A DNA stretch of 64,000 bases, taken from IMG/VR virus record IMGVR_UViG_3300010160_000035, positions 15,639-79,638 of that record. One strand, 5' to 3'. Positions 150 through 13,907 of this stretch are shown one piece after another. The DNA is from a virus. Below the pieces are notes generated by a model, which worked only from the letters and a program-made list of their open reading frames with translations, did no database searches and was not told where the DNA came from. A program made the translations under genes and the position numbers. The stretch's first letter is position 1. The number at the start of each line of letters is the position of its first letter.

Positions 150-1388
150 TTAATAGTAACCTCTCCCTTTTGAGAGGTGATTGTCATAATAAGCATCTTT
201 TTCATCAAGATAGTTAAAGCATTCTAAGCAATAGCTTTGCTGCATTCCTGCATCCCACATAGTATCTTTGTGAGAACAAGGTGCACCTACTTTGTCAAAA
301 AATAAATCTAACTGTTTAATGTTATCTGCTTTATTGTCAATAGGTTCAAAACTTTGATTATACTGTTTTTCTATTTTAAATTCTTCTTCTTTTTGTTCTA
401 TATAATCTAAGATTAAATACTCAAGAGGAGCAAATTCATCTGCAAATTCTATCATTTCTACATCACGCTGCTCAATTAAAGCTACAACATAGTCAAATGC
501 TTTACCATAAGCATAAGTATGTTTAGGATTATTGACATAGAGCTTGCTCTTTTTAAAGCCTTCATATAACGCCTCATAAAGTTCTGACTTACTTTCCGTT
601 GGTTTACTCCCGTAGGTAACTGTAGGTCTTGTAAATAAGAAGCGTTTATCAGAATTACTAATAATATCACAAATTACATTGTAGCAATTTGTAACATCTT
701 TAATAGACACATACTCAGTAGATGTATGAGGATTGTAATACCCACAAGAAATATTAAAGCAAGCAATGCCTACATTTCTTTTAGATAAACAACCAGCATC
801 AGTTGCAATACCTACACACTCTTTGTAATTATAGTCTTTAAGAACAGGTGCCACAAATGTACTAAATTCTTCTCCAAATAGTTGCACACCATTTGAATAA
901 TTTATGAAATCTGAGTTATTTTTTCTGTCAGCCTGACCTATAAACATACAATCATCAAAGTATGATAAATCACAAGCACTAGAACCTATGCAACCTATTT
1001 CTTCTGCTACAAAAAATACAACTTTTAAAAAGTTATAGTCTTCCAAAAGTTGTAAACACATAAATACTCCTACAAGGTCATCACCACCAGTACCTATTTG
1101 TCTTGGTCCATCAAATGCTAACAAATAATCACCATTTTGAAATATGGTTTTATTCTGAGCATATTTATGAACTTGATCTAAATGACTTATTATACATGGG
1201 TAAAGACTAGTTTCACCTTTAGTAACATAAATATTACCATGTGTGTCATTCTCTATTTTCAGCTTACCTTTCATCCTAAGATTCAAAGCATCTAAATAGG
1301 CATTTAAAGTAGGAACTATTTGTTCCTGCTCTTTGTTAGACTCAGACTGCCATCCTAGAACCTCTATTAATAATTTTTCGTTAAACAT
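150..1388 (-). CDS. M20/M28-family zinc peptidase-like protein
   Basis: Metal-ligand motifs SHLDQVH, GGDDLVG, AEEIGCIGS, QADRK and HT; C-terminal C..H..CxxC. Confidence 0.75.
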   Translation of the reverse strand: MFNEKLLIEVLGWQSESNKEQEQIVPTLNAYLDALNLRMKGKLKIENDTHGNIYVTKGETSLYPCIISHLDQVHKYAQNKTIFQNGDYLLAFDGPRQIGTGGDDLVGVFMCLQLLEDYNFLKVVFFVAEEIGCIGSSACDLSYFDDCMFIGQADRKNNSDFINYSNGVQLFGEEFSTFVAPVLKDYNYKECVGIATDAGCLSKRNVGIACFNISCGYYNPHTSTEYVSIKDVTNCYNVICDIISNSDKRFLFTRPTVTYGSKPTESKSELYEALYEGFKKSKLYVNNPKHTYAYGKAFDYVVALIEQRDVEMIEFADEFAPLEYLILDYIEQKEEEFKIEKQYNQSFEPIDNKADNIKQLDLFFDKVGAPCSHKDTMWDAGMQQSYCLECFNYLDEKDAYYDNHLSKGRGYY

Positions 1389-1392
1389 TGTG

Positions 1393-3195
1393 TTAAAATA
1401 TAATGTGTTGTTCTTGTTGACTATCTGTTGCTATGTCATTAATTTGACTTAGCATTGTCTGTAATTCAGGGTTAGAAGCTATAAGTCTAGCTATATTAGC
1501 ATTTGGAGTATAACCAGTTATTTGTTCATGTATTCCTGCTCCTGTTGCTACAATATTAACTGGGCCAGGATTTAATGTACCAACTTCATTTAAAGCAGCT
1601 ATAGTATAAGGATTTTCTTCTACTTCTTGCTCTGAATCTAAATCTTCCTCATCCCAATCTAAATCTTCTTCATAATCTTCATCAGCTTCATCAATATCAG
1701 AATCAGAATCATTTAATGTTACTGTATCAATCCTAAGAATTGGATCTATACCATAGCTTGTATTGACAAATCTTGTATCATATACTTTACCATTATCGTA
1801 ATAAACATGATTGTTATCAACAAGTTCACCAGATAATTCACAAGCAGTAAAGAAATTTAATTCATTAACAGATGCTTGCATAGTAAATGCATTTATGTAC
1901 TGAAAATTATCTATATAAGGAACATCATAACTACTACTAATGTTAGATTGTTGCATTATAGCTACTTGATATCTAACAGCATAAGTTTGCTTATCAATAG
2001 CAGAAGGTATCCAATCTAAAGCTACTTTGTAGTTATCATCATACTGTTTAGTCCAGTTACCTGGGCCTTGATTAAGTAAGTTTTTAGTACTACAAGATTT
2101 TCTATGCTCATAGATATTTTTAATATTATTTTCTTTAGCATATCTGTGAAACAAAGTAATAAGCTTAGTATCTACAGAATAAATTCTATCCATAAATACA
2201 GTACCATCAGTTGTAGTAACTAATAGTGCTCTAGCCATAATAGAATCTGTTTGACCTGCTTTCATAATAAGCAATCTAAAGTTAGAATTCTTAGCATAGA
2301 ACTTTATAACATGACTTTTACTACTATCACGCATACAAGAATTACCTAGTTCACCAGTCATTCTAAAATAACTGTCTTTAAGATAATATTTTATAATATC
2401 ATCACCAACAACTACTGAAAATAAATTAGAGTCAAAACATGTTAGCATTTTATTATACTCTATATAAGCATTAACAGTAGCTTCAGATACTTCAGGAAGA
2501 TGGTCTTTAAAGAATTTACCTATACCCATAGTTCTATGATAAGAAGCTGAATCTTCATTCCATCCATTAGCAACAGCATAAGCATATTTTTCTTTAGTTA
2601 CATAAACAATGTTATTTTCATCTATATGCTTAAAATAGTATATCTCACCTACTTCATTTACAGCACTATAAAAACGATAACTATTAATATTAGGCACCAT
2701 TCTATGTAATTCTGAATATAAAGCACCTTTACTAACTCTAACTTTATGTTCATTACGATTTAAAGGTAAATTACCTACATACATAGCAGCTGAAATTACA
2801 ATTTGACCATCAGGATTTTGATATATATAATAATCTAATTCCATCTTTTCACAGATTGTATAGCCTTTACTTTTCATAACACAAAAAGATATACTATTCA
2901 TAGCATTTTCATGATATCTGTTAATACTGCTAATATAAGTATTTGTATACCCATCTACTACTATAAGACTTTTTCTTCTATCAACAAAACGCACATTTGA
3001 ATCTACATAACCTATACCAGTAAGGTGATGCCAATCTACGTCTGTTATTGTTAAATACAATACTTTAGTATCATTATTATAACTTAATGCAGCTTTAAAC
3101 CTTCTAGATTTAGATTGTTTAAACAGGAAAATCAGTTCATCTGGAAATTTTATTTTTGCATCGCCTTGTTGGTTTGTTATTATTATTTTTCCCAT
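1393..3195 (-). CDS. Conserved phage hypothetical protein with acidic C-terminal tract
   Basis: 600 aa ORF with SCMR, ARALL and FMDRIY motifs; D/E-rich tail. Confidence 0.6.
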   Translation of the reverse strand: MGKIIITNQQGDAKIKFPDELIFLFKQSKSRRFKAALSYNNDTKVLYLTITDVDWHHLTGIGYVDSNVRFVDRRKSLIVVDGYTNTYISSINRYHENAMNSISFCVMKSKGYTICEKMELDYYIYQNPDGQIVISAAMYVGNLPLNRNEHKVRVSKGALYSELHRMVPNINSYRFYSAVNEVGEIYYFKHIDENNIVYVTKEKYAYAVANGWNEDSASYHRTMGIGKFFKDHLPEVSEATVNAYIEYNKMLTCFDSNLFSVVVGDDIIKYYLKDSYFRMTGELGNSCMRDSSKSHVIKFYAKNSNFRLLIMKAGQTDSIMARALLVTTTDGTVFMDRIYSVDTKLITLFHRYAKENNIKNIYEHRKSCSTKNLLNQGPGNWTKQYDDNYKVALDWIPSAIDKQTYAVRYQVAIMQQSNISSSYDVPYIDNFQYINAFTMQASVNELNFFTACELSGELVDNNHVYYDNGKVYDTRFVNTSYGIDPILRIDTVTLNDSDSDIDEADEDYEEDLDWDEEDLDSEQEVEENPYTIAALNEVGTLNPGPVNIVATGAGIHEQITGYTPNANIARLIASNPELQTMLSQINDIATDSQQEQHIIF

Positions 3196-12369: not shown

Positions 12370-12417
12370 AGGACCATCACAGTTATGATGGACTCCACCA
12401 ACTAATCCCCATTAGTG

Positions 12418-12818
12418 TGGAGGTAATGGGAGTCGAACCCATGTCTCAAAATAAATTTCAATTGTTTTCTACAAGTTTAGATAAGGTTTTTCAAACTTTA
12501 AACCTTTCAAAAAGTCTAACATGTACACTGTATGTTATACCAGCTTGAATTCTAATATTTTTTTCTTCCTCACAACTCAAGTAATTTAGGAATATGTACT
12601 TAATTAGACAAGCTCAAGTACAGGAGCTTCAACATCATTAAATGATGCTACAAGGTCAGCGATGGCAGATTTACCAACTACGTCAGCAATCTTACCTGTT
12701 TCAATAGTGTTTCCAGCTATTATTATCTACTAATATTTAAAGTCCTCACATTATTAGACAAGGGACTACTTGCTTACATACTTACTCTTTGTATTCTGAT
12801 CAATACCATGATACCCCC
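12418..12818 (-). ncRNA. ssrA: tmRNA, about 401 nt, CCA not encoded
   Basis: 5' GGGGGUA pairs with 3' UACCUCC-A and includes the G3-U alanine determinant; T-arm AUGGG-UUCGACU-CCCAU preceded by GAC; internal ATG-less tag frame 12714-12604. Confidence 0.9.
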
Positions 12819-12892
12819 ATATGTAAAAACATTCATAGTTGGTTCACACATCAAATGTTACCTATAAGACTATTACTGGTTTTTACAATATT

Positions 12893-13135
12893 TTAATAAT
12901 CAAGTAATTTATTCCATTTTTTTTGAACTTCCCAAGCATTATTTACATACTCATTAAGCTCTTTCATAGCAGTTTCTATTGATTCAAAAGCTATAGATTT
13001 ACAACCTACATTTACAACACAACCTCTACTAAGAAACTGTATTCTTATTTCATATTCTTTTAATACTTCTGAATTTTTAGGTTGGTATTCTTTTATACCT
13101 AATTGTTCTTCACGTAGCATTGGTATTTCATTCAT
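12893..13135 (-). CDS. Hypothetical protein
   Basis: 80 aa ORF, GCVVNVGCK motif. Confidence 0.6.
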   Translation of the reverse strand: MNEIPMLREEQLGIKEYQPKNSEVLKEYEIRIQFLSRGCVVNVGCKSIAFESIETAMKELNEYVNNAWEVQKKWNKLLDY

Positions 13136-13150
13136 GATTATTTAGTTTAG

Positions 13151-13732
13151 TTATTGTTTTTGTTTTAAATATCTATATTTTCTAGCTGAATTTTTATTTT
13201 TAGATTTATATGTGTCCAATTGACTATCACAGTTAGGACAAACTAATCTTAAATTATTTCTATTGTTATTAGCTGCATTACCATCAATATGATCTAATAT
13301 AAATACTAAAATTTTATCATTCCATTTATTACTCATACTACAAATAGAACATTTACTATCTTGTTCTATTAAAAACCTAGGTTTAAATACAGATGGTGAA
13401 TAATTTTCTCTACAATACTCATTATTGTTATCAATAAAATCTATATACCTTAAATTGCTTTGATACTCTTGCTGACATTTAGCAGAACAATATTTTTTTG
13501 AATACACATCACATTCTTTACTACAATTTAAACAATAGACTTTTTCTCTAGTATTATAATTAGCAGGTTTCCAATTTTCAGGAAACTTACTTCTAATTTT
13601 TAATTTTATGCCTAATCTATTAGCTATCTTTTTTATATAAGTGTCTGATACTCCGTATTTTTCACCTATTTTAATATAAGACATCTTTTGATTAAAAATT
13701 AAGTCCTCTAATTCCTCTTTATTATATTTCAT
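13151..13732 (-). CDS. HNH homing endonuclease with N-terminal HTH and zinc fingers
   Basis: CSIC..LDHIDGNAANNNRNNLRLVCPNC; own TATATTTG promoter at 13751-13758. Confidence 0.9.
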   Translation of the reverse strand: MKYNKEELEDLIFNQKMSYIKIGEKYGVSDTYIKKIANRLGIKLKIRSKFPENWKPANYNTREKVYCLNCSKECDVYSKKYCSAKCQQEYQSNLRYIDFIDNNNEYCRENYSPSVFKPRFLIEQDSKCSICSMSNKWNDKILVFILDHIDGNAANNNRNNLRLVCPNCDSQLDTYKSKNKNSARKYRYLKQKQ

Positions 13733-13882: not shown

Positions 13883-13907
13883 ATTCTATCCGTTGAACTA
13901 TGGAAAC
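13883..13907 (-). pseudogene. Orphan tRNA 5' half (acceptor strand plus D-arm, tRNA-Arg-like)
   Basis: GUUUCCA-UA-GUUC-AACGGAUA-GAAU, followed by an A-run instead of an anticodon arm. Confidence 0.55.

Follow-up and report, generated by a model that had tools for sequence, protein, structure and literature searches.

The closest described relatives of the gene reported here are the one-piece tmRNAs of Bacteroidota, whose tag is GENNYALAA or a variant of it; this peptide followed by a stop is encoded in at least 120 genome contigs, almost all of them from Bacteroidota. Among 41 genomes drawn evenly across the phylum (GTDB), 38 carry a tmRNA, and in the 30 best-scoring genes, in which the tags were read, 29 tags have 9-10 codons and end in Ala-Ala, some of the host tags beginning with GNTQ. 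The host genes share with the gene described below a G3.U pair in the acceptor stem, a T-arm, a P2 helix, a PK1 pseudoknot and the lack of an encoded CCA (they end in ...CUCCAC), as well as the sequence UA at positions -5 and -4 followed by a GGN resume codon and a tag that begins with Gly.

Phage tmRNAs are already known, as is one long phage tag, that of mycobacteriophage Bxz1. Bxz1-like phages and Bacillus phage G are listed as tmRNA carriers in a 2014 survey (PMC4131195), and an ARAGORN survey of 2022 reported tmRNAs in 2.3% of 18,146 phage genomes, with phi14:2 and several crAss phages in its Table S1 of tmRNA-carrying phages and forms (PMC9004378). The same paper describes the pelagiphage-like myophage Melnitz, which resembles the present case in that a tmRNA is carried by a lytic aquatic phage without smpB, and its authors propose that the tmRNA keeps the hijacked translation machinery running or serves to tag proteins of the host. 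Unlike ours, the Melnitz tmRNA is a two-piece, circularly permuted one of alphaproteobacterial type, with a link to a glutamine riboswitch. The tmRNA of Bxz1, which sits among tRNA genes, resembles ours in its Rfam score (73.9 bits) and in a long acidic tag, of 25 codons, whose end is ALV and not LAA; however, it belongs to an unrelated phage with an actinomycetotan host, is unrelated in sequence and has the shorter tag. Published tag lengths span 8-35 residues (2021 review, PMC8012679), and in the limited library of literature that was searched we found no paper discussing tag length in Bacteroidota phages.

Here we describe a tmRNA gene in an IMG/VR record of 79,638 bases (79.6 kb), rated 86% complete by CheckV, from which a stretch of 64 kb, hereafter the window, was analysed. 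The terminase, portal, major head protein and family A DNA polymerase of the record all have their best relatives among crAss-like phages, and the hosts named for these relatives are all Bacteroidota (Bacteroides, Flavobacterium, Cellulophaga and Azobacteroides). The carrier is an uncultured crAss-like phage from a lake and, because it is crAss-like, its host is probably a member of the Bacteroidota as well. The sequence-only reading of the window had seen no smpB and concluded that host SmpB would be required; the conclusion holds for the whole 79.6-kb record, in which SmpB was not found.

The gene is detected on the minus strand at 12415-12818 by the Rfam tmRNA model RF00023, over full model positions 1-374, at 72.2 bits (cut-off 47; E 4e-26), and it is the sole RNA family above the Rfam threshold in the 64 kb. 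This score lies far below those of the Bacteroidota host genes (105-186 bits), which also differ in having recognisable PK2-PK4 pseudoknots and 9-10 codon tags with an Ala-Ala end, where the predicted tag of the gene in the window has 36 codons and ends in LELV. The full-model match bears out the initial proposal of a phage tmRNA with an intact tRNA-like domain and a G3-U pair; of the extent first given, 12418-12818, the upper end is that of the Rfam match and the lower end is not. Rfam and ARAGORN, which the sequence-only reading had put forward as alternative checks, diverged: Rfam returned a full tmRNA, while ARAGORN at default thresholds reported none in the window or in the whole record, and with lowered thresholds (-ps) placed a gene at 12417-12818 in which it chose a 9-codon frame, discussed and rejected below, under the output 'Tag not identified'. 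The features of the gene are collected in Table 1, together with the tag frames of other phage tmRNAs. The gene, which reads ...CCUCC-ACAC, encodes no CCA; the two stems of PK1 have 5 and 6 bp, and 15 nt separate the end of PK1 from the resume codon GGA. Scans for sigma-70 promoters and terminators around the gene returned nothing useful.

Table 1. Positions of features in and near the tmRNA gene of the window, and of predicted tag frames in tmRNA genes of other phages.
Feature	Position	Strand	Description or basis
One-piece tmRNA gene	12415..12818	-	Rfam full model; acceptor end 12419, discriminator A 12418
Acceptor stem, 5' strand GGGGGUA	12812..12818	-	7 pairs with 12419-12425; includes G3.U alanine identity pair
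P2a helix, 5' strand	12792..12799	-	8 pairs with 12446-12453
PK1 pseudoknot, H-type	12730..12767	-	Stem 1 AGUCC/GGACU, stem 2 CUAAUA/UAUUAG; sequence and Rfam alignment
Resume context AUAGCU (U at -5, A at -4)	12715..12720	-	Register of host and other phage tmRNAs
Predicted tag frame, GNTIETGK...APVLELV	12607..12714	-	36 codons; sole open frame common to the 6 distinct variants
Second hairpin, inside tag frame	12631-12649	-	Pair-by-pair check
6-bp hairpin directly before tag stop, helix 5 position	12610..12629	-	Pair-by-pair check
Tag stop codon UAA	12604..12606	-	Read from sequence
Variable 3' domain, in the place of PK2-PK4 of bacterial tmRNAs	12477..12603	-	Not alignable among window, L004 type and L018
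T-arm, 5-bp stem and 7-nt loop UUCGACU	12426..12442	-	Rfam alignment, pair-by-pair check
tRNA-Arg(UCU) remnant, 5' 24 nt	13884..13907	-	100% match to first 24 nt of L004 tRNA-Arg
FpV4 tag	L262:1721-1825	-	35 codons, GNTNNSVV...VAVAA
phi14:2 tag	L263:1584-1697	+	38 codons, GNDTDNTQ...LAMVA
L273 tag (62-kb viral contig)	L273:81-194	+	38 codons, ends VAVAA
L267 and L276 tag (identical genes, two viral contigs)	L267:1672-1752	-	27 codons, ends LEIAA
L009 tag (380-kb phage, rated complete)	L009:1561-1623	+	21 codons, ends AAVVA

Further copies of the gene come from viral and metagenome contigs. By blastn the tmRNA has no match among 50,697 phage records, and an exact 28-mer from the T-arm is absent from 185,579 species genomes. 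A degenerate pattern of the tag matched 67 times in metagenomes, five of the matches being full tmRNA copies (L018, which is marine, L033, L051, L058 and L079) and another, L048, only a 27-nt tmRNA fragment at a contig end; among genome contigs the same pattern matched 47 times in unrelated taxa, none of the 47 being a tmRNA. With three copies on viral contigs (L002, L004 and L012), the window and its eight copies make a set of nine genes with six distinct tag frames and sequences.

The tag frame is best placed by comparison of these genes with each other and with those of hosts. In the Rfam alignment the consensus resume codon GCA falls on GGA at 12714-12712, and the context AUAGCU|GGA is in the same register as AUAACU|GGC, UUAAAC|GGC and UUAAUU|GGC of Bacteroidota hosts. 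From this codon 36 codons run to the TAA, which is the frame 12714-12604 of 36 aa that had been read from the letters with an inferred resume codon. Across the six distinct variants only this long frame stays open, the other two gaining stops, so that the comparison of tag frames in relatives comes out in favour of the initial reading. Nine codons vary, five of them in a purely synonymous way (including three Leu switches between CTT and TTA, which take two base changes apiece) and four conservatively (I/V, V/T, N/Y and A/T). The synonymous changes all lie within codons 19-35, and the translation of codons 1-18 therefore rests on the openness of the frame, the homology of the resume site and the conservative replacements. 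At the local base composition, the chance of at least 36 open codons from a fixed start is about 0.026.

Further peptide variants are in keeping with this frame. RNA-library contigs add V12I and V22A. Of the matches to the tag that phmmer returned from 1.84 billion proteins, one is genuine, the call of a 40-residue ORF that covers the tag in a sister lineage; the other four are repeat proteins (HYR domains) and were taken as spurious. The sister lineage, known from this ORF call, comprises six peptide variants on 28 contigs, with T3I, I4V, D20N, V22I/T and A23T, all of them conservative; its tmRNA DNA was not found in scans of viral sequences. The last 13 residues are identical in all six of its variants, and across all variants of the tag they carry only N26Y and A30T. 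On these comparisons the 36-codon frame is the best-supported tag frame, and it would yield, with the charged Ala, an appendage of 37 residues. In length the predicted tag is at the upper limit of the published range or slightly past it, and it has no Ala-Ala end; a length inside the range and an Ala-Ala end are usual, not defining, features of tmRNAs. In this respect the end is non-canonical, as had been claimed; its final residues LELV are hydrophobic, however, which is usual for tmRNA tags (PMC4131195). Seven residues of the tag (FNDVEAP) also match a small ORF at 12817-13155 of the genome, outside the window, probably by chance.

The RNA structure is maintained among the copies. Over the six distinct sequences, standard pairing is found in 99% of the cells of a 50-pair structure, against about 42% when the partners are slid. 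Seven base pairs are altered on both sides, of which P2a accounts for four and the acceptor stem, the T stem and the pre-stop hairpin for one each. All seven acceptor pairs form in each of the six sequences, with G3.U invariant and pair 7:394 changed from A-U to G-C in L033; the same copy changes T-stem pair 377:393 from A-U to C-G and four of the eight P2a pairs on both sides, while P2d is invariant. In the pre-stop hairpin, pair 192:207 goes from G-C to A-U in L018 with the Leu kept (CTT to TTA). Both stems of PK1 pair in every copy without any variation, so covariation gives PK1 no support.

Downstream of the tag the picture is different. In the region of PK2-PK4 the posterior probability of the Rfam alignment is low and no PK2-PK4 can be recognised, and the folding energy of the 3' domain at that position is no better than that of shuffled sequences (z -0.1 and -0.6). 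The post-stop domain exists in three versions that cannot be aligned, in the window (12477-12603, minus strand), in L004 (3332-3441), whose type is the common one, and in L018, in genes that are otherwise near-identical, and by this comparison it appears to be swapped wholesale between near-identical tmRNA genes. The version in the window was seen in its own record alone. In L058, a group I intron (841-1066, minus strand; RF00028, 83.7 bits) splits the T-loop of the tmRNA, the rest of which matches the L004 type; T-loop introns in tmRNA genes are known from clostridia.

The gene is also present in RNA libraries. By word matches, the stretch occurs in freshwater and lake metagenomes of at least 14 studies from 2016-2025 and in six RNA libraries. 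The body of the tmRNA is covered by contigs in all four of four metatranscriptomes, from four studies, these being assembled contigs in which DNA carry-over is possible. [quoted passage not shown] Together these contigs, which are contigs and not reads, hint at a stable and abundant tmRNA. We did not count as evidence the parts of the stretch over which no RNA contig lies, nor habitat assignments that rest on small word shares.

Long tags are found in other phage tmRNAs when the tag is set, as here, by the resume codon of the Rfam alignment and its UA context. The closest cases in cultured phages are Flavobacterium phage FpV4 and Cellulophaga phage phi14:2, which are phages of Flavobacteriia with crAss-type capsid genes and have, like the phage in the window, a one-piece tmRNA that resumes on GGA AAC with a very long tag. 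The FpV4 gene (NC_041872, 81947-82361, or L262:1501-1915, minus strand) scores 58.2 bits and lies in a 2.3-kb unannotated gap; that of phi14:2 (KC821624, 4031-4502, or L263:1501-1972, plus strand) scores 46 bits with the full model, just under the cut-off, and small hypothetical ORFs (gp012-gp014) are drawn over it in the phage record. The GenBank records of both phages lack a tmRNA annotation. In crAss001, cr112_1 and ProJPt-Bp1 we obtained no convincing tmRNA match. With tags of 21-38 codons in these and other Bacteroidota phages, and with Bxz1, the initial reading overstated how singular the long tag is; on the frames predicted here, the tmRNA in the window is one of several long-tag tmRNAs in Bacteroidota phages. 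Default ARAGORN misses the FpV4 and L009 genes and, in phi14:2, starts from an in-frame site inside the tag and assigns 11 codons; as most phage annotation pipelines use this program at default, ARAGORN-based surveys would under-count such genes and mis-describe their tags.

The tag in the window and those of the other long-tag phages have a common layout: they start in a GNT-like way, continue with E/D-N, are hydrophobic in the middle, then acidic, and hydrophobic again at the end. Its residue identity is 18-24% to FpV4, L273 and L009, 11% to L267 and 6% to phi14:2. FpV4, phi14:2 and L273, whose tags all end in Ala, have in common a middle motif (ANM..V/A.F/H.L/I) that is absent from the window's tag, which shares with FpV4 and phi14:2 only the GNT start and the loose pattern. 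Our gene is therefore of the same layout as FpV4, phi14:2 and L273 (phage-borne, resuming on GGA AAC, with a tag of at least 27 codons), and its tag, lacking the middle motif and ending in LELV, is a separate type within it. In the tRNA-like domain, identity to the phage genes is 0.74-0.81 and to the best host gene 0.75, and phage and host genes are not clearly separated. The tRNA-like domain closest to that in the window (81% identity) is of the type in L271 (7819-8176, plus strand), also found in L272, L279 and L280; these are viral contigs of 72-122 kb, either phage or flanking host DNA, and the tag of this type is a normal one of 9 codons, GETQLALAA, which when followed up led to no host. 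The L009 gene (1464-1860, plus strand; 106.7 bits) encodes CCA, is accompanied by no SmpB, and has the same 29-base T-arm and acceptor sequence as the window.

Several other readings of the gene have to be weighed against a 36-residue tag. Resumption at codon 14 instead (GUAGUU|GGU) would give a 23-residue tag with the same end, codons 1-13 being conserved as RNA; the site likewise has U at -5 and A at -4 and resembles the E. coli context AUAGUC|GCA, the purely synonymous changes all fall downstream of codon 18, and ARAGORN chose an internal in-frame site in phi14:2 as well. We nevertheless consider it unlikely, given that GGA is the resume codon by the Rfam alignment and by comparison with host genes, that the internal site is 54 nt past PK1 where GGA is 15 nt past it, that a GN(T) start is common to host tags (GNTQLAMAA) and four other phage tags, and that codons 3, 4, 9 and 12 change only conservatively. 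The 9-codon frame VDNNSWKHY, with the long frame open by chance, is highly improbable: it was proposed by ARAGORN -ps under a label that disowns it, it would resume on a codon that shares bases with the 3' strand of PK1 stem 2, its product would end in Lys-His-Tyr, and the substitution pattern fits the long frame instead. Nor do we give much credit to an RNA that does no tagging, whether a decaying host capture or a gene of which only the tRNA-like domain matters, for example by titrating host SmpB, a role put forward in PMC4131195 for mycobacteriophage DS6A, whose gene consists of the TLD alone. The low Rfam score, the unrecognisable PK2-PK4 and the absence of the gene from a related phage would suit such an RNA, but against it stand a tag frame preserved through synonymous changes, an undamaged PK1 and resume context, compensatory substitutions in P1, P2 and the T stem, and the persistence of the gene in lake metagenomes across the studies and years given above.

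In the reading that we favour and hold to be likely, the constrained tRNA-like architecture, the peptide frame of 36 codons conserved at a host-type resume site and the presence in RNA libraries belong to a functional one-piece phage tmRNA, which would provide extra rescue capacity and whose long tag would probably still be a proteolytic mark, read by a route not of the Ala-Ala/ClpX type. From established tmRNA biology, host enzymes would trim the 3' end and add CCA, and host AlaRS would charge the RNA through G3.U; host SmpB and EF-Tu would deliver it to ribosomes that have stalled where an mRNA is broken or lacks a stop, AUA at -6 to -4 would set GGA as the resume codon, and Ala plus 36 residues would be appended before normal termination at UAA. 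The likeliest benefit would be added ribosome-rescue capacity during infection, which would fit an AT-rich phage whose Arg codons are 80% AGA (in ten long ORFs) and in whose relatives a tRNA-Arg(UCU) adjoins the tmRNA; scarce tRNA-Arg was reportedly linked to SsrA tagging in E. coli by Roche and Sauer in 1999. The sequence-only reading had proposed that the phage could rescue ribosomes stalled through the action of host nucleases directed against it. The weakest step is the fate of the products, which the acidic tag ending in LELV most likely still marks for proteolysis: the near-invariance of the last 13 residues together with the loss of Ala-Ala points to recognition outside the host Ala-Ala route. 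Gur and Sauer are said to have found in 2008 that long Mycoplasma tags switch recognition to Lon.

A tag about four times the length of the 9-10 codon host tags, conserved as a peptide and lacking Ala-Ala, suggests that the appended sequence matters to the phage besides ribosome release. It is possible, if rather doubtful, that it is a phage-specific functional peptide, one that would route rescued chains to another protease or adaptor or shield them from the host Ala-Ala route. Such a role would accord with C-terminal residues that hardly vary and yet end in LELV, with the recurrence of long tags in phages and not in 29 of the 30 sampled genomes of the host phylum, with the Bxz1 parallel and with the Mycoplasma case. 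On the other side, the only peptidase-like ORF is no degron protease, and since Ala is retained at the end of other long phage tags, length alone need not alter fate. A wider version of this idea can be offered only tentatively: a class of Bacteroidota-phage tmRNAs, crAss-like phi14:2 included, may have tags lengthened about fourfold to 27-38 codons under peptide-level selection for a fate chosen by the phage, whether through a protease or adaptor other than the usual one or by evading the Ala-Ala route of the host; the tag in the window, with its LELV end, would be the most extreme of them. Two phage-host pairs in culture have the long-tag layout, Cellulophaga baltica with its phage phi14:2 and Flavobacterium psychrophilum with FpV4, and these ideas can therefore be tested at the bench. 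The peptidase-like ORF, of 412 residues at 150-1388 on the minus strand, lies in the replication module and has a weak match to M42/M20 aminopeptidases (Pfam E 1.4e-5; PHROG 'peptidase' E 4e-43).

Within its phage group the gene seems to have a narrow distribution. A 95%-complete relative with 60% polymerase identity carries no tmRNA gene, which indicates that the gene is dispensable in the group and an accessory of a narrow clade. In relatives that have the tmRNA, an intact tRNA-Arg(UCU) stands just upstream of it; in the window ARAGORN and Rfam found no intact tRNA, and an ORF for an HNH endonuclease (13151-13732, minus strand) lies between the tRNA-Arg remnant and the tmRNA. In the marine relative L018, ARAGORN predicts a further tRNA between tRNA-Arg and tmRNA (1534-1619, minus strand), which is 86 nt long with a four-base anticodon (atga); ARAGORN gives it no amino-acid identity, and its Rfam tRNA score is 52.3 bits.
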